Of a stretch of DNA of 64,000 nt, positions 22,148 to 52,160 are shown in pieces. The stretch lies in the IMG/VR virus record IMGVR_UViG_2645727901_000008; one strand, given 5' to 3'. The DNA is from a virus (lineage: Duplodnaviria; Heunggongvirae; Uroviricota; Caudoviricetes). Numbering within the stretch: the stretch's first letter is position 1; each line of letters begins with the position of its first letter. The notes under the pieces are model-generated. The model had not been told where the DNA came from and did no database searches. It saw only the letters and a program-made list of their open reading frames with translations. The translations under genes were made by a program, and so were the position numbers.

Positions 22148-22370
22148 CCTTTTTGGTGTTAAAATGGCATCAAAGCGACACCAAATGGGAGTCGTTAATG
22201 TACTGGTGCATACTTGGTGCTAATTTAGTGCTATTCAGGCGCAAAACGTGTACCAGTATCCATCGGATTTGATGTTATACTTCCGGCATTAAGAATGGTG
22301 CTATTGCTGTACCGTTGATGTGTAAATGTGGTGCTGTTTTAGTGTAAAAATAGAGCCAAAATAAAGCCGA
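22148..22370. repeat. Repeated TGGTGCT / TGTACCAGT elements upstream of parA (candidate centromere or operator)
   Basis: Multiple tggtgct(a/g)t and gtgtaccag copies; similar elements recur at 23320-23380 and 19385-19460. Confidence 0.4.
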
Positions 22371-22373
22371 GGT

Positions 22374-23021
22374 ATGGACATGATTATCCTGGTAGCAAGT
22401 CAAAAGGGAGGCTGTGGCAAGTCAACCACCAGCGTCAATATTTGTGCCGAGCTGGCCCGAAAAAACAAAGATGTCGTCTTGATTGATGCTGATAAGCAGG
22501 GAACGGCAGCTCGATGGGCGTCAGACCGTAATTCGTCCGAAGTGACACCAGTTATTCATTGCGTCCAGAAGTTTGGAAATATTCGAGAAACTCTGCTCGA
22601 TCTTAACAATCGATATGAATACGTGGTTGTTGATACCGCAGGTCGTGATAGTAAAGAGATGCGCACAGGTATAACGGCGGCGGATATTCTATTGGTTCCA
22701 TTCAGGCCGTCTCAGCCAGATTTGGACACGCTGGCACACTTTGTTGAGGTGTTTGAAGAGGCTTTGGATCTGATGCCTAATCCCAATATTAAGGCGTGCG
22801 CAGTCTTAACTATGGCCCCGTCAAATCCGGTTGTGAATGAAGCAAATGAGGCCAAAGAGTATCTGGCAGAATATCCGCAACTGAAATTGCTGAAAACCAT
22901 TATTCGCGATCGCAAGGTTTACCGCGACTGCATGGCTGAAGGAAAGGGTGTTGTTGAGATGGATAACGGTAAGGCGAAAGGTGAAATTCAGATGTTAGTT
23001 AAGGAGTTGCTAAGTGATTAA
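22374..23021 (+). CDS. parA: ParA-family partition ATPase (small, type Ib-like)
   Basis: Deviant Walker A KGGCGKST near the N-terminus; 215 aa. Confidence 0.85.
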   Translation: MDMIILVASQKGGCGKSTTSVNICAELARKNKDVVLIDADKQGTAARWASDRNSSEVTPVIHCVQKFGNIRETLLDLNNRYEYVVVDTAGRDSKEMRTGITAADILLVPFRPSQPDLDTLAHFVEVFEEALDLMPNPNIKACAVLTMAPSNPVVNEANEAKEYLAEYPQLKLLKTIIRDRKVYRDCMAEGKGVVEMDNGKAKGEIQMLVKELLSD

Positions 23022-38983: not shown

Positions 38984-39314
38984 TTTGACACCCCCAGCGC
39001 GAGTAAAGAATGCAGATTATCGCGTGAGTGGCGGACAACGAGTGATGGGAAAAGACAGTAGCTGTTCATAGTGTAGTGACTCCTTGCTTTCGGAGCCGCC
39101 ATCGACTGTTCCACGGTCTGGTGGCGGCGCAATAAAGGCTGGAACACCGTGAGTCAACGGGGGCTTTTCAGCCACCTATATTGCACCGCCATAGGTATAG
39201 CGGCGGCAATAATACGAAAAACTAAACAGTTTGTCTCAAAAAGTTGACCGGTGTGCCAATCGGTAGTGAATGTACATCGGAGAAATTTACAATTCAACTT
39301 AAAATGTTAGAAAA

Positions 39315-39893
39315 CTAATTTATCAATTCAATCGCCATCTGATACAACGTCATTTCATCGGCATTGTGCCGCATGAAATCTGCTTTTCCGCCTATTTTTC
39401 CGTCAGCATGAACAGGGACCAGCCAGGGATATTGTTCTCGGACCTCGGCTGGCGCTGCGTACTGGTGGTGCCATTTACACAAAGGGAGGACATATTTATG
39501 CGCGTTCTCTGCCGTTCTCCCGAAGATATGGTGCAGGGATACTACTGGGCTATGTTGTCCGTGAATATGGCAGGCAATGCAGGGGAGAGTACCGATAGCG
39601 GTCTGTATCCGGCGTTCATCAGCTGTGAGTGATCTGCCCTTCAGGCCGCGTGACGTGCGTGTTTTTTTGGGCGGAGCGGATACAGCTTTATCTTTTCTCC
39701 GCTGTTCATATTGCTTTGCTTTTTCAATTTTCTTTTGCCGATATTCAGGCGATGCGGCTTTTTCTCTCGCTCGCTGCTGCTGGCGTTGAGCTTGTTGAAG
39801 GCGCTTTGCCCTTTGTTCCTCTCGCCAGGCCGGGTCAGCCAATTTTTGCATGGCTTTTTGTCTCTGTTTCTCCCAATAGCTCTGTTTCTGCAT
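39315..39893 (-). CDS. ref: Ref-like HNH endonuclease (recombination enhancement function)
   Basis: Basic disordered N-terminus plus SRGLKGRSLTADERRIQTAIGTLPCIACHIHG...SLHHIFGRTA...LPLCKWHHQYAAPAEVREQYPWLVPVHADG, matching P1 Ref as recalled. Confidence 0.9.
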   Translation of the reverse strand: MQKQSYWEKQRQKAMQKLADPAWREEQRAKRLQQAQRQQQRAREKAASPEYRQKKIEKAKQYEQRRKDKAVSAPPKKTRTSRGLKGRSLTADERRIQTAIGTLPCIACHIHGQHSPVVSLHHIFGRTAENAHKYVLPLCKWHHQYAAPAEVREQYPWLVPVHADGKIGGKADFMRHNADEMTLYQMAIELIN

Positions 39894-39937
39894 GATGGCA
39901 GTCTCTTACTTTTCAATGATTTTTCTATGATTGATCA

Positions 39938-39975
39938 AAACTGTTAGATATTCAAAATTGATTTTCTAACACAAA
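39938..39975. promoter_or_regulatory. Operator-like motifs between divergent ref and early-operon promoters (ctgttagatattc; attgaTTTTCTAACAcaaaac)
   Basis: TTTTCTAACA family; about 45-80 bp upstream of the ref start. Confidence 0.5.
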
Positions 39976-40010
39976 ACATTAATATCATTCCTGATAACTG
40001 TTTGGAGGAC

Positions 40011-40166
40011 ATGATGCTTATAGCTTTAAGTGCGATCCACCAGCCATCTGTGAATGAAATTGGCCTGTTCTATGTGTTGTTTTTCGGGGCGTTGGCGCTA
40101 CTTGAGCTTGGTATTGAGCTTTTCGCAGTGCTTATGTTTTGCGTCACGATTTTGGGGAAATTTTGA
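40011..40166 (+). CDS. Small hydrophobic peptide (54 aa)
   Basis: GGAGGA RBS then ATG at 40011; stop overlaps the next ATG (TGATG); one or two TM helices. Confidence 0.4.
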   Translation: MMLIALSAIHQPSVNEIGLFYVLFFGALALLELGIELFAVLMFCVTILGKF

Positions 40167-40789
40167 TGGTGAAACGAGTTTTGAAAATTTACATCGCGGG
40201 GCCGATGACTGGTTATCCAGATTACAACCGTGCTGCGTTTAATGCGAAAGCGAGCGAGCTGATGGCTGAAGGGCATATCGTTCTGAATCCAGCTGTGTTA
40301 CCTGGTGGCCTTTGTCAGAGTGAATACATGGATATTTGCCTGGCAATGGTGCGTTCTGCTGATGCGATCTACTTGCTCAATCGATGGGAGGAATCGATTG
40401 GTGCTCGTGCAGAGCACGCGCTGGCTGAAAAGCTGGGGCTGACTGTAATTTATGAATCACCAACCAACATTGAATGCCAGGTTGCTCCGCATATTTACCG
40501 GGAACTGGTCAATGCGTTACGTGATGTTGCTATTGAATGTCACGGCACGGATCAGCTTCGCGCTCGCTTAAGCCAAACCCTTTCCAGTTACCTGTCTTTG
40601 GCTGAAGGATACAACCTCCGACAGCGAAGAATGGTCAAATTAATCACTCTTTTATCGCAATCCCTTGCAAATGCTGAACCAACCAATCCGCTACCTGGTG
40701 ACGCAATGAATTATCTGAAGTCATGCGGTGTTGTTTCTGAAGATGCAGTTCGTTTTGTGGAGTTTATGTCTCGGAGGATGTCGGCGTGA
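40166..40789 (+). CDS. DUF4406-like (nucleoside 2-deoxyribosyltransferase-like fold) protein
   Basis: N-terminus KIYIAGPMTGYPDYNRAAFNAKASELMAEGHIVLNPA typical of DUF4406; C-terminal module shared with the ORF at 48882. Confidence 0.55.
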   Translation: MVKRVLKIYIAGPMTGYPDYNRAAFNAKASELMAEGHIVLNPAVLPGGLCQSEYMDICLAMVRSADAIYLLNRWEESIGARAEHALAEKLGLTVIYESPTNIECQVAPHIYRELVNALRDVAIECHGTDQLRARLSQTLSSYLSLAEGYNLRQRRMVKLITLLSQSLANAEPTNPLPGDAMNYLKSCGVVSEDAVRFVEFMSRRMSA

Positions 40790-41103
40790 GCTGGCGGGGA
40801 TGGGGAAGGGCAGAAATCATGATACTCCGCCAGTGCGCCGGAACTATGACGGTAGAGAGTATTGGGAAGCTGATCGGTCGTACCGGTGATGCCGTCAGGA
40901 CTAAAGCGCGGGAGCTGGGGATCAGCATGATTCTGAAAGGAGACTTTCATCCGTCAGCCAAATACCGGCAGAGCGATATAGAACTGGCACGGCAGCTTCA
41001 TCAGTGTGGTGTTCCCCGCCGTGAGATCGCGGAAAAACTCGAAATGCCCCTGGGCATGATTAATCAGTACGTTTATTTCGAAAGGAGAGTACATGAAGTC
41101 TGA
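40786..41103 (+). CDS. Hypothetical early protein
   Basis: 105-aa ORF, 4-nt overlap with upstream gene. Confidence 0.5.
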   Translation: MSWRGWGRAEIMILRQCAGTMTVESIGKLIGRTGDAVRTKARELGISMILKGDFHPSAKYRQSDIELARQLHQCGVPRREIAEKLEMPLGMINQYVYFERRVHEV

Positions 41104-41518
41104 AGGTTTAACGCCAGAGCAACTGGCGGAGCGTAACGCTCAGTATGTGACGGAAATTTCCCGTCTTGAGAAAGAGCGCGCGGCGCTGGCGGCGGAGAAT
41201 GCAGGGCTAAAGGCGATATGTGATGACTGTCGCAGGTTCATCATGAATGGTGTGCAGATGGGTTATATCAAGGTGCCAACAGCGGAAACAGATCCAGACC
41301 TTGAGACAATACGTATTGCTATATCACCACAAAAGCCCATTCCAGCCACCGATGCTTTTCTGGCTGAAGTCCGGGCACAGGGATTGGAGATGTTTGCTCA
41401 GAAATGTAACTCAAAATCAGAACAGTCGATTGCATCTGATATACGCGATAACTGGAAACTACTCGGTGAACATGCCACTGACTTTGCCGCAGAGCTTCGC
41501 AAGGGAGGGAAACAGTGA
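41093..41518 (+). CDS. Hypothetical early protein
   Basis: 141-aa ORF; segment ERAALAAENAGLK resembles the Ead/Ea22-like paralogs downstream. Confidence 0.5.
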   Translation: MKSEGLTPEQLAERNAQYVTEISRLEKERAALAAENAGLKAICDDCRRFIMNGVQMGYIKVPTAETDPDLETIRIAISPQKPIPATDAFLAEVRAQGLEMFAQKCNSKSEQSIASDIRDNWKLLGEHATDFAAELRKGGKQ

Positions 41519-41763
41519 GTAATTCAGCACGACTACAGCTTGGTTTTTCACCGCTATCAAAAACCATCGTGTTGGCAAAAATGCGTGACTTAGGGGATGG
41601 AACAAAACGTCGTGTTGGCAATGATCGCGGTCGTGATGTAACCAACGAGGCCGCTCAACTCGTCTGGCATCTGGTCATGGCAGAAGGCGGTGAAATTAAT
41701 TGGGAGCTGGATGATGGTTCGCGCATGGTATTGAAGGCAGAAAAGCAGGAGCCACCACAGTGA
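41515..41763 (+). CDS. Hypothetical early protein
   Basis: 82-aa ORF, coupled. Confidence 0.45.
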   Translation: MSNSARLQLGFSPLSKTIVLAKMRDLGDGTKRRVGNDRGRDVTNEAAQLVWHLVMAEGGEINWELDDGSRMVLKAEKQEPPQ

Positions 41764-42053
41764 ATATCGACACCACGATAACGATCGATACGGCCCTCAA
41801 CACAGGTTTGGCCCTGCTCGGTTGGTTTTACATCATGTTCAGTGCGGGGAAGTGGGCGGCCTCTGTTTTTCTAAAGCAGTGGGGAAAGCGCCGCAAACAG
41901 GAGATACGCCAGAAAGCGTTAGAGGCGTTCTATGACGCCTTTGAACTTAGCCGCATTGAGCCTGGCACAACAGCCAGGGTAGCAACAAAAGATGACCTGA
42001 TGATCGTGATGTTCCGACAGGAGAAAGCAAATGGCAGCAAAGCGAATGACTAA
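41760..42053 (+). CDS. Hypothetical membrane protein
   Basis: 97-aa ORF with N-terminal hydrophobic helix. Confidence 0.45.
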   Translation: MNIDTTITIDTALNTGLALLGWFYIMFSAGKWAASVFLKQWGKRRKQEIRQKALEAFYDAFELSRIEPGTTARVATKDDLMIVMFRQEKANGSKAND

Positions 42054-42255
42054 TCGCGAACTTGTTGATGCCGCGATTGAACTTGCTGGCGATTTTTATT
42101 CCATGATGGGGTACACGCATCGCCCAGGCTTCAAATATTGGGAGTCTCCGCACCCGCAAGAGCAACGGGTATTTCAAATGGCCTGTCGCGCTTTTGAAGT
42201 TATTCGCGGTTCTGATGTGATGGACGCGATTGCTGATTTGGAGGATGAAGAGTGA
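42031..42255 (+). CDS. Hypothetical early protein
   Basis: 74-aa ORF. Confidence 0.45.
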   Translation: MAAKRMTNRELVDAAIELAGDFYSMMGYTHRPGFKYWESPHPQEQRVFQMACRAFEVIRGSDVMDAIADLEDEE

Positions 42256-42563
42256 ACACAATTAAAGAAATGCCGGTAGAACGTGATGAATATGGCTGCT
42301 GGACACATCCGGAGTATGAGAAGTTTTGCGCAGGTCGTGAATATATTTCCACTGAGGAATTTGACGCCTGGATGAAGGAAAATAATCTTCAGTGGACTAT
42401 TCGCAGTATGGATGAAGATGATTTTGATCTGGACGCAGCTGGTCCCGATATTGCCGCCTGGGAACCGGAGCGACCAGAAGGTGAAGGCTGGTTTGTTGGC
42501 TCTATTCATGACACTGAAGATGGTCCAGTTTGTATCTGGCTGCGGGAGAAGGTTGCCGCATGA
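42252..42563 (+). CDS. Hypothetical early protein
   Basis: 103-aa ORF, coupled to the phosphatase gene. Confidence 0.45.
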
Positions 42564-43252
42564 TCCAAGCTATGCATGAAGTGAATTTATATAGCCGTAT
42601 TGATGGTTCTGGCTACAGAAACATATGGGTAGTTGGTGATCTGCATGGTTGCTACACCAGACTGATGTCCGAACTCCATCGTGTGGATTTTGACCCGGCG
42701 CAGGATTTACTGATATCGGTTGGCGACCTTATCGATCGCGGTACTGAAAATGTCGAATGTCTGGAACTATTACAGATGCCCTGGTTCAGGGCAGTAATGG
42801 GGAACCATGAGCGGTTGATGCTTGATGCGTTAAGTCCTGATGGCAACGTGAATAACTGGCTAATGAATGGCGGACAATGGTTCTTCATGCTGGACACTGA
42901 TCAGGAAATATTAGCCAAGGCGCTGGTGGAGCTGGTAAAGCGTCTGCCATATATCATTGAGTTGAACACCGGACATGAAACTATCGTTATAGCCCATGCC
43001 GACTATCCAGGTGGAGAGTACCAGTTCGGTAAGGATGTATCGCTTTTTGATGTTGTCTGGTCGCGCAGTCGCGTCGGTGATTCGATAGATGGCATTGGTG
43101 GAGAAATCACAGGCGCAGATCGCTTTATCTTTGGGCACACACCGGTACGAAGACCAAAAGCATACTGGAATCAGCACTACATAGACACGGGCGCGGTTTT
43201 TTGTGGAAATCTGACGCTAATGCAGGTGAAGGGAGGGCAGCTTAAAGTCTGA
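42560..43252 (+). CDS. Ser/Thr protein phosphatase (lambda-PPase / PrpA-like metallophosphoesterase)
   Basis: GDLHG, GDLIDRG, GNHE motifs; ATG at 42560. Confidence 0.85.
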
Positions 43253-43276
43253 TCAAATCATTTACGCACTCAAAAT

Positions 43277-43310
43277 GCGTTAGAACATTGATTTTAGTTT
43301 TCTAACATAT
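43277..43310 (+). promoter_or_regulatory. Operator-like motifs (gcgttagaacattg; attttagTTTTCTAACAtat)
   Basis: TTTTCTAACA family, about 40 bp upstream of the ATG at 43350. Confidence 0.45.
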
Positions 43311-43349
43311 TATTTTACCACTCGGAACAAAACAGAGTCGGTATGCATT

Positions 43350-44345
43350 ATGAGTGCAATAATCACCCCATATGTCGTAAATGAAACTGGTGTGGCTGTC
43401 TTTCCGGTAGACAAGCCCACCAGCAACTACATCGGCGCAGGTCGCCGTTTCATTATCTCACCACTTCCGCGAGAACAGGCTGAAAACACTCCAGATGGCG
43501 TAGTGGATCTGAATTATTCGCTGGTTGCCAACCAGTCGCTGAAACCATTTTTTCAAAGCGAGCGCGTATTTAACGCGTTAGGCGGTGAAGATTCGCTTGT
43601 TCATTGGGTAAGTTCCAATATCCACGATTGCCAGGCGCACGATAAGCGCGATTGCAGCCACCAGCTAACCACTCATTTCTATAACGGCTCTGCCGTTCGC
43701 CTGTGCTGGAAGCATGATGCGGAATACATGATGAAGGGGTACAGCAAGCTGGACGACCAGTTATCCCTGAATCGCGCCAACTGGGTTATGAACTGGGCTG
43801 CGAGCGAGTTAAAACTACCGCCAGAACGCGATCTGAGCATGGTTGAACTCACTTTTTGGGCCATTCGCCGGAATCTGAAAGATGAGCTGCCAGATGAAGC
43901 CGGGCGCATTGCATTTTGTCAGCCAAAAACTGAAATCCCTACCGGTACGCTGAAAGAATCAGATATCACCTGGGAGCACAGTACCCGCGAGCTGGTGGAC
44001 ATAACCGCAGAGCAGATCGTCAACCTGTCTGTAGATGAGGATTCCGGCCTGCTTTATATGCGCCGACCAAAAGCGGTCCTCGGTAAAAGCCCAGCTTATC
44101 TCCGGTTTGTGGTTTCTCGTCCGTGCATCGGATGCGGTGGCAAAGTTAACCACCCGTTCATGTACCGCGCCCGCTCGTTAAACGAACACGACCGCTGGGC
44201 TGTTCCTCTTTGTGATGACTGCGCCAGAAGCGCAGAACACGATGTCCGGGCATGGGAAAAAGCACATGGCATACGCCTTTATGTAGCCGCTAACCAGCTT
44301 TTCGACTTCGCCATCGAGCGCGGAGTGATCACGTTCAATAACTGA
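43350..44345 (+). CDS. Hypothetical protein with C-terminal Cys-rich (zinc-binding-like) region
   Basis: 331 aa; CIGCGG...PLCDDCA pattern near the C-terminus. Confidence 0.5.
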   Translation: MSAIITPYVVNETGVAVFPVDKPTSNYIGAGRRFIISPLPREQAENTPDGVVDLNYSLVANQSLKPFFQSERVFNALGGEDSLVHWVSSNIHDCQAHDKRDCSHQLTTHFYNGSAVRLCWKHDAEYMMKGYSKLDDQLSLNRANWVMNWAASELKLPPERDLSMVELTFWAIRRNLKDELPDEAGRIAFCQPKTEIPTGTLKESDITWEHSTRELVDITAEQIVNLSVDEDSGLLYMRRPKAVLGKSPAYLRFVVSRPCIGCGGKVNHPFMYRARSLNEHDRWAVPLCDDCARSAEHDVRAWEKAHGIRLYVAANQLFDFAIERGVITFNN

Positions 44346-44358
44346 TGGGAACAACGCA

Positions 44359-44658
44359 ATGAGTCAAGGTAACGGTGGTGGAGCTGCAAAGTGCAGAATC
44401 TCCACTTGTTTGATTAATGGCAGAAAAATAGAACCGTGCGCGGCGCTGGCACAATCTCTGGAGCAGGATGCTGAATACACGACGCGAAAAGGCCTGCTGA
44501 AATACAAAGTCTATAACCATGAATTAATTCATTCACAGGACCTGATCATGCTGCGGTCTGGTGAATTTTCTAAATCGCCTATTCGAGTTTCATTTTGCCC
44601 ATTCTGTGGTGAAAGTCTGAAAACGTGGGAAGCGGAGGCAACCAGTGAGCAAAATTAA
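44359..44658 (+). CDS. Small zinc-ribbon-like protein (paralog of 46151..46414)
   Basis: Shared C-terminus SFCPFCGESLKTWEAEATSE. Confidence 0.5.
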   Translation: MSQGNGGGAAKCRISTCLINGRKIEPCAALAQSLEQDAEYTTRKGLLKYKVYNHELIHSQDLIMLRSGEFSKSPIRVSFCPFCGESLKTWEAEATSEQN

Positions 44659-45103
44659 CTATCAAGAACTGCGCGAGGCGGCGGAACAGGCAACGCAAGA
44701 TGAATGGGTAGCATATATTTTGCCGGGTCATAACGGCATTTATCCTGCGCGCACGTCTGAAGGTAGGCATTGCGGATACTTTATTGACTGGCCTGGCATT
44801 GATGGACAAAGGAATGCTGGTGCTAATGCCCGTTATATCGCGGCTATCCCACCAAAAGTTGCACTGTCACTCCTAGGCGAAATTAAGCGCCTGGAGGACA
44901 AAAATATTGATGCCATGTGCCAAATTGCAGAGCTGGAGAGCAATCGCGCGGCGCTGGCGGCGGAGCATGGTATTCAGATTGCAATAAATGAACTGCTTGC
45001 TCTGGCCCCGCGTCTGGATAAACGAGCGATGGATGCACTCTCTGTGGCTGTGGAGCACCTGTGTAAACTGATTAAGAAGGAGGCAGTCAGTGAGCAAAAT
45101 TAA
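44645..45103 (+). CDS. Ead/Ea22-like protein (paralog 1)
   Basis: N-terminus MSKINYQELREAAEQATQDEW characteristic of prophage Ead/Ea22-like family. Confidence 0.6.
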   Translation: MSKINYQELREAAEQATQDEWVAYILPGHNGIYPARTSEGRHCGYFIDWPGIDGQRNAGANARYIAAIPPKVALSLLGEIKRLEDKNIDAMCQIAELESNRAALAAEHGIQIAINELLALAPRLDKRAMDALSVAVEHLCKLIKKEAVSEQN

Positions 45104-45770
45104 TTACCAGGCACTGCGTGAGGCGGCAGAAAAAGCACTACATGGTGAATGGGGTTACGAGGCAGGGGCAATCTGGAATACCTGTGATAGCGGCTATGTT
45201 CAGCACATGGCAGCGGTCGAGACTGGCGATGATGTTAGCGATGAAGAGCATATGAGCAATATGCGTTTTATCACGCTCGCCACGCCAACTGTTGTTCTTG
45301 GATTGCTTGATGAGCTTTCTGAAGCTAAAGCTGCCGAAGAGAATGAGTCCAGTTGTGCTAACAGCGTTATCGACATCGCTATCAACTGGCAGATGCGAGC
45401 CAAAGATGCAGAAGCCAAGCTGGAAGCCGCAGAGAAGCGCATTGCGGAACTGGAAACAAAAGCGAACCAGCAAACCAGAATAAGCGATAAGAATCTGACC
45501 AGGCTGATTGCCGATGCTGACAAAATGCTGGGTATGCGTTCGCCGGTTATAGACAGCGAGTGGTGGACGCTTTTACGGCAGTTCCTGATTGAACTTCAGG
45601 ATCGCCGCAGAAACAGCATTTCTGAATCTGGAATCCGTGCTGAAACCCTGAATGATTTAATCCGACATATTGACAGAAACCTGGATATTGACGCGATGAA
45701 ATCGCCGTTTGAACTGTCATCTGAAATTGTGGATTACGTTAATAGGCAACTGCACAAGGAGAATTCGTAA
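45090..45770 (+). CDS. Ead/Ea22-like protein (paralog 2)
   Basis: N-terminus MSKINYQALREAAEKALHGEW; C-terminal segment duplicated at 45990-46153. Confidence 0.6.
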   Translation: MSKINYQALREAAEKALHGEWGYEAGAIWNTCDSGYVQHMAAVETGDDVSDEEHMSNMRFITLATPTVVLGLLDELSEAKAAEENESSCANSVIDIAINWQMRAKDAEAKLEAAEKRIAELETKANQQTRISDKNLTRLIADADKMLGMRSPVIDSEWWTLLRQFLIELQDRRRNSISESGIRAETLNDLIRHIDRNLDIDAMKSPFELSSEIVDYVNRQLHKENS

Positions 45771-46150
45771 TGCAGGTGGCATTTGTTGGCCTGTTACCGC
45801 ATCCGATCCGCCTTTGGGCGGATATGTCACTCATAAAAACGCATTTTTTTACTACTGATGGCGGCATTCCGGCACCAAAGCGCCGTCATACCGGTATTGC
45901 AGCGGCACGACGAGCAGCAAAGAGACGCAGGAGAGCAAAGCGATGAAAAACCGTAAAGCAAATAAAGTGGCAAAACAGGAGGCGGCGCAGTGAACCAGCA
46001 AACCAGAATAAGCGATAAGAGCCTGACCAGACTGATTGCCGATGCGGACAAGGTGCTGGAGCGGAACACACCCGTTGCCGATGAGGAATGGTGGCAGGAT
46101 TTCCGGGCTGCAATGCTGGAACTTCAGGAACGTCGTCGGGAGGAGTTGAA

Positions 46151-46414
46151 GTGAGTGAATTAAAGTGTCGAATTAATGGCAATCAGATAGAACCGTGTGC
46201 GGTACTGGCAAAAGCACTCGAATATGGAAATCCAGCCTTTAAGAGTAAAGGCATATTTATCCCGGAACGCGTGAATATAAATACCGGCGAGCCAGGCTTA
46301 GACATTGCTCAAATTCACTCCGGCCAATATGTCGGTCGTGGTGTTGCCATGTGTTTTTGCCCGTTCTGTGGTGAAAGTCTGAAAACATGGAAAAAGGAGG
46401 CAACCAGTGAGTGA
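46151..46414 (+). CDS. Small zinc-ribbon-like protein (paralog of 44359..44658)
   Basis: GTG start at 46151 (MSELKCRINGNQIEPCAVLA...); ends CFCPFCGESLKTWKKEATSE. Confidence 0.5.
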   Translation: MSELKCRINGNQIEPCAVLAKALEYGNPAFKSKGIFIPERVNINTGEPGLDIAQIHSGQYVGRGVAMCFCPFCGESLKTWKKEATSE

Positions 46415-46961
46415 AGTTAACTATCAGGCACTGCGTGAGGTGGCAGAGGCCGCGAAGGGGGATACGACGTGGCAGAACCTACAGGCTTTTCATGCTGCGG
46501 CAACGCTGGAGGTTGTGCAGGCGTTGCTGGATGAAAACGAAAGACTGTGTCGCGATCTGATAGCTCGTAATGGTGAGATTGAAGGGCTTCGGGAGTGGGC
46601 AGAAGAACTGGAGGCACGGGAAGTGGCTTTGCCAGTAGCGTCATGCATTGTTGAAGATGGATGCATGTGTGTTGATGGGTTCAGTGAGTATGTAGGTCAC
46701 TCGCTACCTGATGGAATGCATGAGCTTTATGCTGCCCCACCAGCGTCGGTAGTGCCGGAAGGACTAGTTAAAGCAGTGCGTTTCTATGAACAGGTAAAGT
46801 GTGAGAATCCGCCAGTCGAAACCGGAGCATGGAAAGACGCTATTGACTGGGTGCTCAAAGAGGCTTGCCAGGCTGTAAACATTGGCATCAAAGGAGAGAG
46901 ATATGGCAACTTTAACAAAAAAAGAACAAGCATGGTTGAACGAATTACAGGACGTTCTTGA
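46407..46961 (+). CDS. Ead/Ea22-like protein (paralog 3)
   Basis: N-terminus MSEVNYQALREVAEAAKGD. Confidence 0.55.
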   Translation: MSEVNYQALREVAEAAKGDTTWQNLQAFHAAATLEVVQALLDENERLCRDLIARNGEIEGLREWAEELEAREVALPVASCIVEDGCMCVDGFSEYVGHSLPDGMHELYAAPPASVVPEGLVKAVRFYEQVKCENPPVETGAWKDAIDWVLKEACQAVNIGIKGERYGNFNKKRTSMVERITGRS

Positions 46962-47166
46962 TCGCTGTCCGTCACCGAAAAAAATAGGCTTTTACACCAT
47001 TGGCGATAAAAACATTTACCTGTATGACCTACGCCGCATGGATGTAATCATGGAGGCTCTTGATAATCGTTCGTCGATGGATTGGTGTGCTGCTGTCCAT
47101 GATATGAATGCCGGATTTGATGAAACGATTTTGTTCCCCTCATCAGTTGAAAGCACTGCGGGTTAA
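46903..47166 (+). CDS. Hypothetical protein
   Basis: Likely start MATLTKKEQAW within track ORF 46882..47166. Confidence 0.4.
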   Translation: MATLTKKEQAWLNELQDVLDRCPSPKKIGFYTIGDKNIYLYDLRRMDVIMEALDNRSSMDWCAAVHDMNAGFDETILFPSSVESTAG

Positions 47167-47176
47167 GGAGTAACAC

Positions 47177-47560
47177 ATGACCACTATTACCAAAGAACGT
47201 ATTGAATTGTTCATTAAAAATCCGCTTGAAAACGGACTTACCCGTGGCGAACAAATGGAACTGGCACGAATTGCACTGGCCTCGCTTGAGGCAGAGCCAG
47301 TTGGTGCATTCCACATTGCTGAACAGCAAGTTGACGGCACAAGTGACTACATCAAGGATGGGGAGTGGCCTATTGATAATGGGACAATTGAAGTCTACGC
47401 CGCCCCGCCAGTACCGGTAGTACCTGCTGCATTACCTGAGAACGACGATGAGGACGGGCAGGACATTGATTATCTTGAGCCATCTGAAGTTTACGCGCTT
47501 GGGCGAACAGCTGGCTGGAACGCCTGCCGTGCTGCCATGCTTAAGGGAGATAAATCATGA
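47177..47560 (+). CDS. Hypothetical protein
   Basis: 127-aa ORF. Confidence 0.5.
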   Translation: MTTITKERIELFIKNPLENGLTRGEQMELARIALASLEAEPVGAFHIAEQQVDGTSDYIKDGEWPIDNGTIEVYAAPPVPVVPAALPENDDEDGQDIDYLEPSEVYALGRTAGWNACRAAMLKGDKS

Positions 47561-47928
47561 TTAATCGTACCAAGCTGGAGCACATCCTCGAATATGCCAG
47601 ACAGCAGAAGCGCTTTGGTCAGCATTGCAAAATTCCGCCAGGAGATATGGTTGAAATCGTGGAGATTGCCATGCGTAAGGCTGGCAACTATCCGGTAACT
47701 CCGGATAGTTGGATAAGCTGTAGTGATCGAATGCCTGAAAAGGGCCAGAACGTGCTTATTTCGGTGAATTTCGATAGCTCTCTGGTTGAACCGCTAATAT
47801 GCTCCGCACGCTATACCGGAAGCACCTTTCGGCGCGGAGATGCAACGATTAAGCCGGGTAATGGTATTGAGCAAGCAACTCACTGGATTCCGCTACCGGA
47901 ACCGCCGCAGGAGGTTAACCGTGGCTAA
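47557..47928 (+). CDS. DUF551-like protein
   Basis: C-terminal HWIPLPEPP motif typical of prophage DUF551 proteins. Confidence 0.5.
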   Translation: MINRTKLEHILEYARQQKRFGQHCKIPPGDMVEIVEIAMRKAGNYPVTPDSWISCSDRMPEKGQNVLISVNFDSSLVEPLICSARYTGSTFRRGDATIKPGNGIEQATHWIPLPEPPQEVNRG

Positions 47929-48202
47929 CCTGCAACTTGCCGTCAAAGGTGAATACTTCGATGCCATGATTCGCGGGGAGAAAACAGAAGAATATCGCCT
48001 GTGTAATGACTACTGGAATAAGCGAATTATGTTCCGGGAATATGACCGCCTGATTATCACAAAGGGATATCCGAAGCGCGACGATTCCAGTCGCAGAATA
48101 GACGTCCCGTATAACGGATATGAAATCAAGACAATCACACATCCGCACTTCGGTGATAAACCGGTAAAGGTGTTCGCGATAAAAGTGAAGATTAATAGCT
48201 AA
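47921..48202 (+). CDS. ASCH-domain-like protein
   Basis: MANLQLAVKGEYFDAMIRGEKTEEYR... pattern of ASCH domains; start assumed at GTG 47921. Confidence 0.5.
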   Translation: MANLQLAVKGEYFDAMIRGEKTEEYRLCNDYWNKRIMFREYDRLIITKGYPKRDDSSRRIDVPYNGYEIKTITHPHFGDKPVKVFAIKVKINS

Positions 48203-48225
48203 ATTTCAATTAACACGGAGTAATT

Positions 48226-48519
48226 ATGTGGCGCGGTAATAATCATGGCGGAAGCCAGATGATACTTACCGAATATACGTTCGACCCCAAAACCTATAAA
48301 TCACGTTCAGTATATTTGCTTCGGCACAATAGCCGCGTAAGGAATACCGTGCTGGAGCAAAATCTGACCGTTGAAATGGATAATTTTGGGAACTTCAAGC
48401 CAACAATTGCGCTTGATGATTTTCCGCGTGGTTTAAGCGAAAGAGAAGCAATGCTGAAATTAGCAGAATGGCTACAAAGATTAAGCATTGCTATTGAAGA
48501 TAACTGGTCTGAACCTTAA
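48226..48519 (+). CDS. Hypothetical protein
   Basis: 97-aa ORF. Confidence 0.45.
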   Translation: MWRGNNHGGSQMILTEYTFDPKTYKSRSVYLLRHNSRVRNTVLEQNLTVEMDNFGNFKPTIALDDFPRGLSEREAMLKLAEWLQRLSIAIEDNWSEP

Positions 48520-48525
48520 ATTTAT

Positions 48526-48900
48526 ATGATGACACTAAAACATTTTCTTGACCGCCCATTATGGGCGGCAGCCGCAGGCTATGATTTTAATTATATGGAT
48601 TGCATGTCTTATACTGCCAATGCATACGACCATTCGTTCAGCCTGCTGTTTAATTCTTTAAGAATATTGCCGGAAACAGAAGTTGGAGAGCTTCATTTAT
48701 GGCTATTGGGTTTTATCGCGGCTGTCGTTGGTATTGCTGTATGGCCTTTTATTTTCTGGCTGGTGGCTGTTGTAGTGTGGTTTAAGTGCAAGACATACCG
48801 GAAAAAGTATTTCTTAGGTGATGGAATGACTGATATTGCCAAAATGAACATTGAAAAATGGACTAAGGAATGTGAAAAGAAATGGCGCAAAAAGAAATGA
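48526..48900 (+). CDS. Hypothetical membrane protein
   Basis: Two predicted TM helices (LWLLGFIAAVVGIAVWPFIFWLVAVVVWF). Confidence 0.5.
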   Translation: MMTLKHFLDRPLWAAAAGYDFNYMDCMSYTANAYDHSFSLLFNSLRILPETEVGELHLWLLGFIAAVVGIAVWPFIFWLVAVVVWFKCKTYRKKYFLGDGMTDIAKMNIEKWTKECEKKWRKKK

Positions 48901-49505
48901 CCAGAATCACTGAAGAGCGTATATCAGAGATTATTTCCCGTATCGAAATGTATGGTCACGGAGCTGGATATACGGCAGATGAAGTATTGGAAATAGCCCA
49001 GCAGATGCTGGCCTTGAGACAAAAAGAGCAACATGAAAGTAATACGTGTAGATTGAATTTTGAGCAGTGGCTGGAACAGCAACGCGGGAAAATCGATGTG
49101 GACTGTGGTTGTGTGTCCACTGAAACATTCATGCACTGGCTGCGGGTAGCTTACGAGGCTGGCAACTATCCGGATATTCCGGATAGTTCGGCGCAAGCAC
49201 CAGGGAAGGGGGGGTTCCCCGGAGAGCGGATCCGAATTAAGCCGCATGTTTACCGTGAACTGGTTAACCGCCTCCACGATACAGCGATCAAGTGTGCTGG
49301 CACCCAGCAATTACGGGAAAGAATTAGCCGCGTTTTGGGCGAAGTTATTACACCAGATCGTCATAAACAAGCCGAGAAAAGCGGCCTGGAAAGGAGTCAT
49401 CTTGAGGCGGCATTAAACATTAAACCGGGGCATACGCTAGGTGTCATTGATGCCATGTTGGTTCATGAAATGGCTAAGGCGTTATTGCCACTGGAGGCTG
49501 ATTAA
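48882..49505 (+). CDS. Hypothetical mosaic protein
   Basis: Shares PHVYRELVNRLHDTAIKCAGTQQLRERIS with the 40166 ORF and AGNYPDIPDS with the DUF551-like ORF. Confidence 0.5.
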   Translation: MAQKEMTRITEERISEIISRIEMYGHGAGYTADEVLEIAQQMLALRQKEQHESNTCRLNFEQWLEQQRGKIDVDCGCVSTETFMHWLRVAYEAGNYPDIPDSSAQAPGKGGFPGERIRIKPHVYRELVNRLHDTAIKCAGTQQLRERISRVLGEVITPDRHKQAEKSGLERSHLEAALNIKPGHTLGVIDAMLVHEMAKALLPLEAD

Positions 49506-49542
49506 ATTCCGGATAAAGCTGATATCTGATCACCATGCTAAA

Positions 49543-49571
49543 ATCCCCTCAATTCACAGAGGGGATTTTTG
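49543..49571 (+). terminator. Rho-independent terminator (atcccctc...gaggggat + TTTTT)
   Basis: Hairpin plus T-tract immediately after the long plus-strand early operon. Confidence 0.7.
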
Positions 49572-49574
49572 TAT

Positions 49575-49841
49575 ATGTTGCGTAGATTTTTAGGTAAAAG
49601 CGTTATTGTCGGTGCGATGTTGGCTATGTCTGGGTGTGCTATGGTGCAATACAATGACGGAGAAAAGGTTAGCATCCAGTCAGATGGTTGGTATGGCCTG
49701 GATAGCCTGCAAAAAACAGCGGATAAAGCCTGCCAGCAATACGGAAAGTCTAAAGCCGTATATCAGCATAGCGCGAACGCTAACCCTCATCTTGCGCCCG
49801 GTTCGGGTGTTCAGAATACCATCTGGAAATGTGAGCCTTAA
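49575..49841 (+). CDS. Small lipoprotein
   Basis: [21 protein letters not shown] signal peptide with lipobox. Confidence 0.55.
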
Positions 49842-49843
49842 AC

Positions 49844-50092
49844 ATGAGCGACTGGAATATTGCAGCCAAAAGTCAGGAAGAACGGGATAAGGTTAACGTA
49901 GATCTGGCTGCCAGCGGTGTGGCGTACAAAGAGCGATTGAACATACCAGTCATAGCGGAACAGGTGGCCAGGGAACAACCTGAGCACTTGCGTGCATATT
50001 TCATGGAAAGACTACGTTATTACCGCGAGCAGAGCGTGAAACTACCAAAAGGAAGTGATCCGGTATATCAAAAGGCAGATCCACAAAAATAA
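49844..50092 (+). CDS. Hypothetical protein
   Basis: 82-aa ORF coupled to the lipoprotein gene. Confidence 0.45.
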
Positions 50093-50167
50093 GCCTTTTC
50101 AATAAGCTATATCACCACCAGCTAAAAAATACATTCTGACTTGCATGAAATGCGCCCTTTAGCGATA

Positions 50168-50187
50168 TACTGTATATAAACACAGTA
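50168..50187. promoter_or_regulatory. LexA (SOS) box TACTGTATATAAACACAGTA
   Basis: CTGT-N8-ACAG with AT-rich centre, 17 bp upstream of humD. Confidence 0.8.
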
Positions 50188-50203
50188 TTTAGGAGGGCGT
50201 ATA

Positions 50204-50596
50204 ATGGGATTCCCATCACCAGCAGCCGATTTTGCTGAAAGCAGAATTTCGCTTGACGCACAATTCATCAAACGACCAACCGCAACATATTTCATGCGGG
50301 CCGCCTGCTCACATCTCCGTGAGGGGATTTTGCAAGGTGCAATGCTGGTGGTTGATTCATCTCTTCCACCACTGGATGGTTCTCTACTCATATGTGCCGT
50401 AGAGGGAGAATTTCGCGTAAAGCGATACCGCAAGCATCCTCGCCCACACCTTGAGGATCTGGAAAGCGGAAGACGTGAGTCACTGCCAGATGATGATGAC
50501 AGCAGCTATTCCGGGAGTCAGGCCATATTCGGGGTAATCACATACATCATTAACGATGCCAGGAGTGGGGAATTTGATGATTGCCCGGTGATTTAA
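50204..50596 (+). CDS. humD: UmuD'-like protein HumD
   Basis: MGFPSPAADFAESRISLD... UmuD'-type sequence; preceded by a LexA box. Confidence 0.85.
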   Translation: MGFPSPAADFAESRISLDAQFIKRPTATYFMRAACSHLREGILQGAMLVVDSSLPPLDGSLLICAVEGEFRVKRYRKHPRPHLEDLESGRRESLPDDDDSSYSGSQAIFGVITYIINDARSGEFDDCPVI

Positions 50597-50668
50597 GCTG
50601 CAAAGAGCTGGTGCTTTATGCTTGTGAAGTTTATACTTGTGTACACATAACGAGTACACGAGGTGTTT

Positions 50669-50890
50669 ATGCAATCCATTAACTTCCGTACCGCGCGTGG
50701 CAACCTTTCTGAAGTGCTCAACAATGTTGAAGCCGGGGAAGAGGTTGAAATCACCCGCAGAGGCCGTGAGCCAGCAGTAATTGTCAGCAAGGCTACTTTC
50801 GAAGCCTACAAAAAAGCGGCGCTGGATGCTGAATTTGCATCCCTGTTTGACACCCTGGACTCCACCAACAAGGAACTGGTTAACCGATAA
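50669..50890 (+). CDS. phd: Phd antitoxin
   Basis: [73 protein letters not shown] matches P1 Phd as recalled; ATG at 50669. Confidence 0.95.
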
Positions 50891-51270
50891 TGAGGCATAT
50901 ATCACCGGAAGAACTTATTGCGCTTCATGATGCGAATATAAGCCGCTACGGCGGCCTGCCGGGAATGTCAGATCCGGGTAGGGCAGAGGCCATTATCGGG
51001 AGAGTTCAGGCCAGAGTTGCCTACGACGAGATCACCGACCTTTTCGAAGTCTCCGCCACCTACCTGGTGGCTACGGCGAGAGGGCATATATTCAATGATG
51101 CCAATAAGCGTACCGCGCTAAACAGTGCGCTGCTATTTCTACGCCGTAACGGTATACAGGTATATGATTCTCCCGTGCTGGTGGAACTTGCGGTGGGGGC
51201 CGCAACTGGTGAAATCCCCGTATCTTCAGTAGCGGAAAAACTACGTGAATTATTTGGTTCCAATATTTGA
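50890..51270 (+). CDS. doc: Doc toxin (Fic-fold)
   Basis: [45 protein letters not shown]...[23 protein letters not shown] close to P1 Doc as recalled, divergent at the C-terminus. Confidence 0.95.
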
Positions 51271-51273
51271 AAA

Positions 51274-51299
51274 GAAGCCCGCTCAACCAGGCGGGCTTC
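51274..51299. terminator. Bidirectional terminator-like hairpin (gaagcccgc...gcgggcttc)
   Basis: Hairpin between convergent doc and the minus-strand operon. Confidence 0.6.
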
Positions 51300-51353
51300 C
51301 TACTATCACTCAATGATTTTTTCTGCTGTCAGCCAGCTAATTCGGTGATGTTT

Positions 51354-52160
51354 TTAGGCGTCAGCATCAGCATCCTCCGCTACCTCTGCTTCCACATCAG
51401 CCACGGCTTCATCGGACGGTTCTTCTTTGGCCTGATCTGCAATCGCCGCACGGCATTTCGCCCTGGCTGTAGCGATTGCTTCAGCTCGCACATCATCAGG
51501 AATCGTTGACGTGATATACATATCCACTTCTTCGGCGCGGAACACTGTTTGGTCCAGATATTCGCGTAGCATCCAGGTAAATTCGAAATCACACGCGATA
51601 ATCTCTGCGCTACCTTCTGCACCATTTGAGAAATGAATAAATGCCTGTTTAGCCAAACCGATAACACGACATGCGGTTGCCAAAACAGCGACAACTAGGT
51701 TTACATTTTCACACGCTACGGGCTGATTAACGCCGGAGATTACTCCATTTAACTGTCGGTTATATGGAAGGTAGTTTGAGATGCGTTCTACGCGCCATGT
51801 GCCAGTCAGGCTGCCATTTTTAAATATAATTGGTGTAACGGATAGCCCAAGCTCGCGTATAAGTCGTTGCGCTATAGCAGGATCATTAAACAGGTCTAAT
51901 GCTATACATTCGAAAGACTGCGCAAGGGCAAACAGTTCTTCCAGAGAGTAGTCTTTGCCCCTGGCGGTGATGTAACGACGAACGCCGCTGTCTGCATCAC
52001 TCCATATAGCTACGCCATGCTCTTCATTCAGCACTTCATTAAAGCCGAGATACGTCATGATAGTGCGTTCAATCGTGTCAAACGGCAGTGACATGTCGGC
52101 GTTAACAGCCACCAGCAGGCCATTACGCAAGCGGTATTGAATTGTTTTGGTGCTTTCCAT
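51354..52160 (-). CDS. Hypothetical protein with acidic C-terminus
   Basis: 268-aa ORF, last gene of a minus-strand operon. Confidence 0.5.
   Translation of the reverse strand: MESTKTIQYRLRNGLLVAVNADMSLPFDTIERTIMTYLGFNEVLNEEHGVAIWSDADSGVRRYITARGKDYSLEELFALAQSFECIALDLFNDPAIAQRLIRELGLSVTPIIFKNGSLTGTWRVERISNYLPYNRQLNGVISGVNQPVACENVNLVVAVLATACRVIGLAKQAFIHFSNGAEGSAEIIACDFEFTWMLREYLDQTVFRAEEVDMYITSTIPDDVRAEAIATARAKCRAAIADQAKEEPSDEAVADVEAEVAEDADADA

Follow-up and report, generated by a model that had tools for sequence, protein, structure and literature searches.

We analysed a stretch of 64,000 nucleotides (the window) from a tailed-phage record (Caudoviricetes; IMG/VR IMGVR_UViG_2645727901_000008) and, within it, an array of small genes at positions 44359 to 46961 that encodes two four-cysteine proteins (ZnR-A and ZnR-B), three proteins of the Ead/Ea22 family (Ead1, Ead2 and Ead3) and two small open reading frames (ORFs) of 58 and 54 amino acids (aa), o58 and o54. 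The window belongs to the P1 supercluster of phage-plasmids and is of the phage D6-like kind; positions 1-24000 matched Escherichia phage D6 at 98% identity over 95% of their length, and the top matches of the studied region were E. coli plasmids of about 88-110 kb. The features of the array and its right edge, with their matches to PHROG families and to the Pfam profile PF13935, were as follows.

44359..44658, + strand: ZnR-A, a 99-aa four-Cys protein, 'EHDAEYT' subtype of phrog_4030 (PHROG E=7e-41)
44634..44708, + strand: junction repeat copy 1, comprising the Shine-Dalgarno sequence GGAGG, a spacer, the GTG start and the first ~16 conserved codons of Ead1
44645..45103, + strand: Ead1, 152 aa, PF13935 68.0 bits, a short form without a distinct C-terminal domain
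45079..45153, + strand: junction repeat copy 2, at the Ead1 3' end and Ead2 start
45090..45770, + strand: Ead2, 226 aa, PF13935 56.2 bits
45461..45531, + strand: copy 1 of a 71-nt repeat, inside Ead2, in the 5' part of a 54-aa-type module
45770..45946, + strand: o58, a 58-aa Arg-rich protein, phrog_13831 (PHROG E=1.6e-24)
45943..45993, + strand: a stub of 16 codons, MKNRKA/NKVAKQEAAQ then stop (MKNRKANKVAKQEAAQ then stop)
45963..45973: recombination joint between the Ead1-Ead2-o58 block and the o54-ZnR-B-Ead3 block
45990..46154, + strand: o54, GTG start, 54 aa, phrog_14672 (PHROG E=6e-34, 56-position profile)
46151..46414, + strand: ZnR-B, an 87-aa four-Cys protein, 'EYGNP..KSKG' subtype of phrog_4030 (PHROG E=3e-29)
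46396..46470, + strand: junction repeat copy 3, at the ZnR-B 3' end and Ead3 start
46407..46961, + strand: Ead3, 184 aa, PF13935 49.4 bits, with its own C-terminal module (phrog_26213/660) and a YAAPP motif
46891..46896: joint at which the Mu-like-prophage-type block meets the o87 block, within the Shine-Dalgarno sequence AAAGGAG
46903..47166, + strand: o87, 87 aa, phrog_1714, 96% identical to a gene in a P22-like prophage (locus L085)

A preliminary description of the array, made from the letters alone, had proposed three Ead/Ea22-like proteins and two small proteins with a common C-terminus, FCPFCGESLKTW..EATSE. Both proposals were confirmed, the former by PF13935 scores well above the gathering threshold of this profile (Ead_Ea22, 27 bits) for all three ORFs and the latter at 44359-44658 and 46151-46414. 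The Ead ORFs begin V/M-S-(K/E)-(I/V)-N-Y-Q-(E/A)-L-R-E-(A/V)-A-E at 44645, 45090 and 46407. When the paralogs were aligned, the three Ead proteins could be matched convincingly over their first 16-20 residues only, and ZnR-A and ZnR-B were 44% identical in aa sequence. Both ZnR proteins matched the 85-position phrog_4030 profile over its full length (positions 2-85) and, in an alignment of 28 family sequences, fell into the two main subtypes of that family. Four cysteines, C6, C16, C70 and C73, were invariant in all 28 sequences, the first pair being spaced C-x9-C and not C-x2-C; from these residues it is plausible that the ZnR proteins are small zinc-binding proteins. The family was confined to Enterobacterales, and 89-aa proteins 99% identical to ZnR-B were found in E. 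coli. The start of ZnR-B was most likely the GTG at 46151, giving 87 aa, because both the family alignment and the annotation of enteropathogenic E. coli (EPEC) E2348/69 place it there; an upstream ATG would extend the gene to 46088-46414. A PDB sequence search gave ZnR-A a weak phmmer match to archaeal RpoM (E=0.024), which was insignificant. The idea that the ZnR proteins resemble the zinc-finger/homeodomain-like Ea8.5 of lambda was rejected, as no such chain appeared in the PDB sequence search or the Foldseek search of PDB.

All of the small ORFs of the array matched PHROG families of unknown function. Their starts overlap or abut the preceding stops throughout (TAATG, ATGA, GTGA): the start of o58 overlaps the Ead2 stop (TAATG), the GTG start of ZnR-B overlaps the o54 stop, and junction repeat copy 1 overlaps the 3' end of ZnR-A by 14 nt. 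The apparent gap at 45770-45990 contains a genuine 58-aa gene and the gene stub; a known RNA was ruled out there, as an Rfam search (E<=1) over 40-52 kb found no RNA families. Genes like o58 commonly lie 3' of Ead genes, and this adjacency was seen also in loci L001, L002, L039 and L085 (L numbers denote loci used for comparison).

Comparison of the array with itself detected direct repeats of 75, 93 and 71 nt. Each of the three Ead starts carries a copy of the 75-nt repeat (44634, 45079 and 46396; 69-80% identity). The 93-nt repeat has two copies, each spanning a ZnR 3' end and an Ead 5' end (44593 and 46355; 86%), and the 71-nt repeat also has two (45461-45531 and 45989-46059; 90%). Repeats so long and so alike lie far outside what chance would give. 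The 71-nt repeat corresponds to one of about 70 bp in the preliminary description, which was real but whose first copy had been placed at 45468-45540. Identity between its copies was 55/60 in the first 60 nt and about 57% afterwards. The second copy had been thought to encode the C-terminus of the 54-aa ORF; instead, it forms the first 23 codons of o54, the N-terminal 23 residues being encoded at 45989-46059. At the protein level the homology is longer, since the whole of o54 matches residues 125-177 of Ead2. Neither was o54 the duplicated fragment that it had been called, for it is an intact member of a standalone family (phrog_14672) that is also present upstream of ZnR in E2348/69. There it is annotated as a separate coding sequence directly upstream of the ZnR gene, the same arrangement recurs in other viral contigs, and standalone copies 94-98% identical were found in L044, L048 and L052. 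A pseudogene fragment was rejected on the ground that this is a conserved standalone family (profile length 56). The 54-aa module is found either fused (Ead2, phrog_7520) or free-standing (phrog_14672, here and in E2348/69).

The repeats at the Ead starts reflect a conserved junction. Before each Ead gene of the window lies the sequence GGAGGCAACCA GTG AGC AAA ATT AAC TAT CAG GCA CTG CGT GAG GCG GCA GA, which carries a ribosome-binding site and an overlapping start and stop, and the consensus of 40 distinct Ead starts was (A/G)GGAGGCAACCA-GTG-AGC-AA(A/G)-ATT-(A/G)A(C/T)-TA(T/C)-CAG-GCA-CTG-CGT-GAG-GCG-GCA-GA. Across these 40 junctions the mean majority-base frequency in the 15 nt upstream of the start was 0.84, and the majority frequency at third codon positions was 0.76 in codons 1-16 as against 0.51 in codons 17-30. 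The same DNA is read in two frames by upstream genes, so that ZnR and Ead1 end in ...EA(T/V)SEQN and Oad2-like proteins (discussed below) in ...LRKGGNQ. The last 5-7 residues of the C-terminus common to the two ZnR proteins (EATSE[QN]) are therefore a translation of the Ead ribosome-binding and start junction, and the genuine ZnR motif is FCPFCGESLKTW. We propose that the junction would couple translation of Ead to that of the upstream gene, its strong Shine-Dalgarno sequence compensating for the GTG start, and that it could serve also as a short homeologous recombination substrate.

The origin of the array became apparent from its closest relatives at the DNA level, which changed from block to block along the sequence.

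42500-45131: ppp to the start of Ead2, 99.7% identical to plasmid pPSS-08-1_2 (NZ_AP027678), a D6-like E. coli plasmid
44634-45962: Ead1, Ead2 and o58, 97.9% identical to a P22-like prophage (L085), in its erf-ssb-abc2 neighbourhood
45974-46896: o54, ZnR-B and Ead3, 97.2% identical to a Mu-like prophage of EPEC E2348/69
46891-47198: o87, 96.4% identical to the same P22-like prophage (L085) as the Ead1-Ead2-o58 block
47682-49500: DUF551 domain onward, 99.8% identical to plasmid pPSS-08-1_2

Relative to the closest plasmid, a segment of ~2.5 kb has been replaced by blocks that are 96-98% identical to P22-like and Mu-like prophage blocks, and the breakpoints lie at gene or domain boundaries, above all at the conserved Ead start. 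On the left, the near-identical match to the sister plasmid pPSS-08-1_2 breaks off at 45131, right after the N-terminal motif of Ead2, and homology to the P22-like prophage begins exactly at 44634, the Shine-Dalgarno sequence of Ead1; the Ead1 region is 97.9% identical in DNA to L085. The Prokaryotic Genome Annotation Pipeline (PGAP) lists a near-identical Ead1 gene of plasmid GZ2408P-P2 (L001 3346-3669, in a block of 99.7% DNA identity) as a C-terminally incomplete pseudogene. Despite that call, the 152-aa ORF is kept at 98% DNA identity in the P22-like prophage, and Ead1 may be either a short functional form or a truncated remnant.

The middle joint (45963-45973) cuts a gene of 62-63 aa after six codons, homology to one relative ending at 45962 and to the other resuming at 45974. 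The stub at 45943-45993 begins with the first six codons of this gene (MKNRKAK...NRWKNHLRIKGE), which is intact in L083 and L085, and is the true gene fragment of the locus. In E2348/69 and a viral contig, the sequence to the right of the joint belongs to a DUF4752 gene, of which it forms the 3' end. Nucleotide-level dissection made no flanking homology visible at this joint, and it looks illegitimate. The right joint (46891-46896) falls within the AAAGGAG ribosome-binding site of o87 and removed the native stop of Ead3. As a result Ead3 reads 22 extra codons across the o87 start: its last 22 codons are read-through from the joint (46897-46961), overlapping the start of o87 by 59 nt, and its native homologue in E2348/69 ends ...KGGA. 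o87 is a flanking member of the same pool of modules. The match to the sister plasmid resumes at 47682, just where the DUF551 domain begins within a gene that has a different N-terminal part. This DUF551 gene (47557-47928, + strand) is itself a domain chimera, with an N-terminal part of ~41 aa here and an unrelated one of ~147 aa in pPSS-08-1_2.

The exact composite was found nowhere else. Among 5,426 complete E. coli genomes, PLSDB and the phage collection, no record covered >=80% of 44300-47000 or of the joint region 45750-46250, and in none was the o58-to-o54 joint contiguous. Copy number varied among related elements when these were compared: D6 has one ZnR and one Ead gene, a single ZnR is accompanied by three Ead genes in pPSS-08-1_2 and GZ2408P-P2 (PGAP flags two of the three as partial), and the window has two ZnR genes, three Ead genes and the standalone 54-aa gene. 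Retrieved viral contigs carrying ZnR showed many module orders 3' of it, none with a second ZnR within the flanks. The varied copy numbers and module orders support the suggestion in the preliminary description of a recombining and diversifying accessory locus.

Since each cassette is 97-98% identical to one in a different phage type, the array must have been assembled by block import. The array is a patchwork of self-contained modules in a D6-like (P1-supercluster) phage-plasmid, and the reading as a whole, in which these modules were exchanged by recombination and serve early accessory functions, we consider probable. The same modules (ZnR, Ead/Ea22, 54-aa, 58-aa Arg-rich and 87-aa) circulate among P1/D6-, P22-, lambda- and Mu-like temperate phages of Enterobacterales. 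What built the array was modular import combined with homeologous or illegitimate recombination across temperate-phage types, and not recent duplication. Phage recombinases of the Red and Erf types recombine DNA diverged by about 22% and produce mosaics at such borders (PMC2327257, PMC3945230). By this route the Ead junction, the 5' end of the 54-aa module and junctions of the AAAGGAG type would be short homeologous substrates, through which Rad52-like phage recombinases could swap whole genes or domains.

Exchange of domains is most evident in Ead2. It consists of the N-terminal motif, a variable N region, a long helix with the pivot AAEKRIAELE, the 54-aa-type module (residues 125-177) and a C-terminal 49-aa module, and phrog_14672 and phrog_7520 both matched its residues 114-178. 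Homologues of Ead2 combine the same N half (92-97% identity) with at least five unrelated C halves, joined after AAEKRIAELE, among them a DUF551 domain and a P-loop-like module. An AlphaFold2 (AF2) model of Ead2, built from a 15-sequence alignment, was all-helical, with a helix at 6-15, a long helix at 90-147 (~58 residues) and C-terminal helices; its confidence was low (pLDDT score 48), too low for a fold search, and only the helical secondary structure was used. The lambda Ea22 protein is an early tetramer with a pro-lysogenic effect, built of an N segment, a coiled coil and a variable C-terminal domain (CTD) (PMC10834534, PMC7093339); the pro-lysogenic phenotype is known for lambda and Shiga toxin (Stx)-phage Ea22 only (PMC7093339). 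By analogy, the Ead proteins would be oligomeric helical or coiled-coil scaffolds, in which a conserved N-terminal helix and a stalk are combined with an exchangeable C-terminal module. The array proteins might act early on host or immunity targets, tuning lysogeny versus lytic growth or countering host defence, in roles neither structural nor replicative. That they are early accessory proteins biasing lysogeny or evading defence we offer tentatively, as we would any specific version of this proposal.

The array is flanked by ppp/HNH(DUF968) and DUF551/ASCH/hot, an arrangement common to D6. The upstream flank contains the following genes.

42530-43252: ppp-type metallophosphoesterase
43350-44345: DUF968/HNH protein

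The 3' flank contains DUF551, an ASCH-like gene (annotation from the near-identical plasmid) and hot (theta), the last assigned from the gene order of the closest plasmid. The + strand genes are tightly packed between about 40.1 kb and a strong terminator-like hairpin (49540-49569, + strand), and promoter-like sites are strongly depleted across 39000-51500 (4 in a consensus scan versus 16.7 expected). The interval from about 40.1 to 49.5 kb is thus predicted to be one long + strand operon of non-essential accessory genes. Of the P1 genes between pap and hot, all those that were tested (upfM could not be) are non-essential by CRISPR interference and by deletion, and lambda ea22 is likewise non-essential (PMC10695390). 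A search of the entire window for the P1 C1 operator consensus, allowing <=3 mismatches, found no sites, so that C1-type control was not demonstrable and regulation of the operon either differs from that of P1 or uses another operator. Within the operon, genes at 42031-42255 (phrog_4132-like) and 42252-42563 (phrog_1372-like), both on the + strand, belong to families that lie directly 3' of ZnR in other phages, which indicates that the same module pool is re-used at different operon positions. Divergent from the operon and just upstream of it, an ORF of 192 aa (39315-39893, - strand) has a Lys/Arg/Gln-rich N half and a Cys/His-rich, HNH-like C half (CIACHIHG...LHHIFG...CKWHH). At the left edge of the window, positions 1-731 were 86-90% identical to the constant/variable boundary of the P1 tail-fibre gene S, including the cix inversion crossover site, and an invertible tail-fibre segment probably begins there.

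Several points weigh against parts of the interpretation given above. The pooled ends of high-scoring segment pairs from 87 loci do fall at the same gene and domain boundaries as the joints (between ZnR and Ead, behind the Ead N motif, the coiled-coil pivot, the end of o58, between Ead3 and o87, and where the DUF551 domain starts), which favours the interpretation, but these loci are related and non-independent and the clustering is descriptive only. Conservation of the junction motif could stem from protein or translation-initiation constraints alone, and a Rad52-like recombinase in D6-like plasmids or in the window is putative. The suggested coiled-coil scaffold of Ead2 derives from homology and predicted helices, with a pLDDT of 48, and a phmmer search of all PDB chains (E<=10) with Ead2 and Ead3 returned no Ea22 chain. 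Zinc binding by the ZnR proteins is suggested by conservation of the cysteines, the zinc-ribbon fold having no significant match: the AF2 model of ZnR-B (pLDDT 75) gave no Foldseek match at E<=0.001 in PDB or BFVD. The proposed single operon comes from consensus scans only. Finally, no array protein matched a family of known function in Pfam or PHROG. Searches elsewhere gave similar results: NCBIfam yielded a sub-threshold match at chance level only, PADLOC yielded none at E<=0.1 for 10 proteins, and PDB sequence searches with ZnR-A, Ead2 and Ead3 yielded insignificant matches only.

An alternative view of function is that the array is a dedicated counter-defence island, in which Ead scaffolds and small proteins inhibit host immunity and have been diversified by an arms race. 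It draws on HK446 gp27 (Oad2), a relative of P22 EaE shown to bind the P2 OLD defence nuclease and to inhibit it, with fusions to Ead/Ea22 also reported (bioRxiv 10.64898/2026.07.10.737580). In keeping with this, phrog_368 unites an Ead-type N region with an Oad2-like C half, the operon of the array itself encodes an Oad2 homologue (41093-41518, E=5e-10), the P22-like prophage has an Oad2-like gene right in front of its copy of the Ead1-Ead2 block, and the C-terminal modules turn over very fast. However, no protein in 44359-46961 is detectably related to Oad2 or belongs to a family annotated in PADLOC or as anti-defence; a tblastn search with gp27 found nothing significant in that interval, its sole match being at 41156-41515 (E=3e-7), outside the array. 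Moreover, the sole tested phenotype of the family, in lambda and Stx-phage Ea22, is pro-lysogenic (PMC7093339), and neutral or weakly selected morons are also expected to turn over fast. We regard a dedicated counter-defence island as doubtful.

The Oad2 homologue itself (41093-41518, + strand) is a 141-aa protein with 30% identity to gp27 by BLASTP; it has in common with gp27 the motifs ...ATDAFLAEVRAQ... and, at the C-terminus, LRKGG(K/N)Q, and it matched phrog_492, phrog_614 and the C half of phrog_368. In HK446 (L086), directly downstream of oad2, an unannotated Ead-type start, VSKIDYQALREIAKHQRL..., lies behind a GGAGGCAACCA junction at 22341-22507 on the minus strand; this looks like what is left of the 5' part of an Ead gene, in the intergenic region between gp27 and xis.

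A further reading joins the scaffold and the exchange of modules: Ead/Ea22 would be a general display scaffold, its conserved N-terminal helix and coiled-coil stalk oligomerising interchangeable, fast-evolving C-terminal inhibitor modules for counter-immunity or host manipulation, the anti-OLD module Oad2 being one, and the conserved junctions (the Ead 5' junction, the 5' end of the 54-aa module and those of the AAAGGAG type) would have been selected as recombination linkers. We judge this unlikely. Were it true, P1-, P22-, lambda- and Mu-type phages would trade modules as genes or as domains, and standalone modules such as the 54-aa gene would form a reserve for re-fusion, comparable to the orphan CT modules of polymorphic toxin loci.

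A ZnR gene and an Ead gene might instead form an obligate two-component unit, of the regulator-effector or toxin-antitoxin-like kind, the array then being two such systems plus an orphan. In the window each ZnR gene is indeed followed by an Ead gene, as the preliminary description had it, and their starts and stops overlap, so that translation is coupled; the same adjacency occurs in D6, in P7-like plasmids and in the E2348/69 prophage. As an obligate pair it did not stand: among 79 ZnR loci the next gene was Ead-like in only ~25, a 103-aa phrog_1372-like gene in 34 and a 214-aa VNNRFYMMCL gene in 16, the rest being ASCH or others, and the next gene overlapped the ZnR stop in every one, so other partners are equally coupled. 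Ead genes also occur without ZnR, in lambda, in the P22-like L085 and at D6 orf92, and the PADLOC search gave no match. An obligate unit is, in our judgement, improbable.

Recent duplication of a ZnR-Ead cassette in situ, followed by divergence that left the 54-aa ORF as a leftover fragment, was the explanation first given for the array. Its attraction lies in the ZnR-then-Ead order found twice and in direct repeats of 71-93 nt with 86-90% identity. The identity, however, is confined to junction or motif segments of 50-93 nt; outside these the ZnR proteins are only 44% identical and belong to different long-standing subfamilies, and the Ead proteins cannot be aligned beyond ~20 residues. Nor are the copies each other's closest relatives, for each has a counterpart 97-99.7% identical in another element, the cassettes being 97-98% identical to those of other phage types, and the 54-aa ORF is no leftover but an intact gene that is widely conserved in standalone form. 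Recent duplication was not supported by these results and is very improbable.

An assembly artefact, that is, a repeat-induced mis-join or expansion, is scarcely credible: the exact composite and its 45963-45973 joint are absent from the genomes, plasmids and phages searched, but the repeats, with <=93 nt and 69-90% identity, are neither long nor similar enough to mislead assemblers, the joints lie outside them with reading frames and translational coupling kept across, and every block has independent counterparts at 96.4-99.8% identity, sub-blocks being reproduced at 97-99.7% in independent complete records.

The patchwork of imported modules gives a nucleotide-resolved view of the shuffling of cassettes and domains among four temperate lifestyles, those of a phage-plasmid, P22-like, lambda-like and transposable Mu-like phages, and it corrects the intuitive assumption that tandem paralogs mean local duplication. 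Because an Oad2 homologue lies within it, the D6-type operon at 40-49.5 kb is a candidate site for new host-manipulation or anti-defence proteins.

Comparison with known systems places the array as follows. Like the window Ead proteins, lambda Ea22 and P22 Ead score with PF13935, begin M/V-S-x-I-N/D-Y-Q-A-L-R-E, have predicted long helices and vary at their C-termini, and they too are encoded by early non-essential accessory genes in a highly mosaic region. In the lambda exo-xis/'ea' region, a single ead copy lies between exo and xis, whereas the window has three in tandem in a P1/D6-type phage-plasmid; the C-terminal modules of the window are also unlike the lambda Ea22 CTD solved by nuclear magnetic resonance, with no PDB sequence match. 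The Oad2/P22 EaE module belongs to the same shuffled pool as the array, being fused to Ead N regions (phrog_368), adjoining Ead genes and having a homologue 3 kb upstream, but no protein within 44359-46961 is detectably homologous to it.

In D6 (orf99-orf100) and P7 (upf87.4-upf87.6) a ZnR gene followed by an overlapping gene occupies the same position, downstream of ppp and DUF968/HNH, and ZnR-A is the equivalent of D6 orf99 and P7 upf87.4. D6 is 98% identical in the 3' end of DUF968/HNH and the first ~50 nt of the ZnR-A gene (the megablast match ends at window position 44665). D6 has one ZnR and one Ead, and in P7 and SJ46 the ZnR is followed by a non-Ead gene of 214 aa; the window differs in its additional ZnR gene, which is of the other subtype, in its three Ead genes and in the presence of the standalone 54-aa gene. 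The Mu-like prophage of E2348/69 (NC_011601 2723705-2724619) is 97.2% identical in DNA over 923 nt and shares the three genes (54-aa gene, ZnR and Ead) together with their order and overlaps. In that prophage the block lies between a DUF4752 gene, which precedes it, and an o58-like gene, whereas in the window it follows the 16-codon stub and its Ead has lost the native stop.

Lastly, at least one joint of the window, lacking flanking homology, departs from the homeologous model of phage mosaicism. In other respects the array resembles the mosaics described by Martinsohn (2008) and De Paepe (2014), with high-identity blocks bounded at gene junctions by short, diverged, conserved borders and with exchange between different temperate phage types. 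The array brings familiar modules together in a new combination, within a mosaic region of a well-known type, and is no new kind of system.

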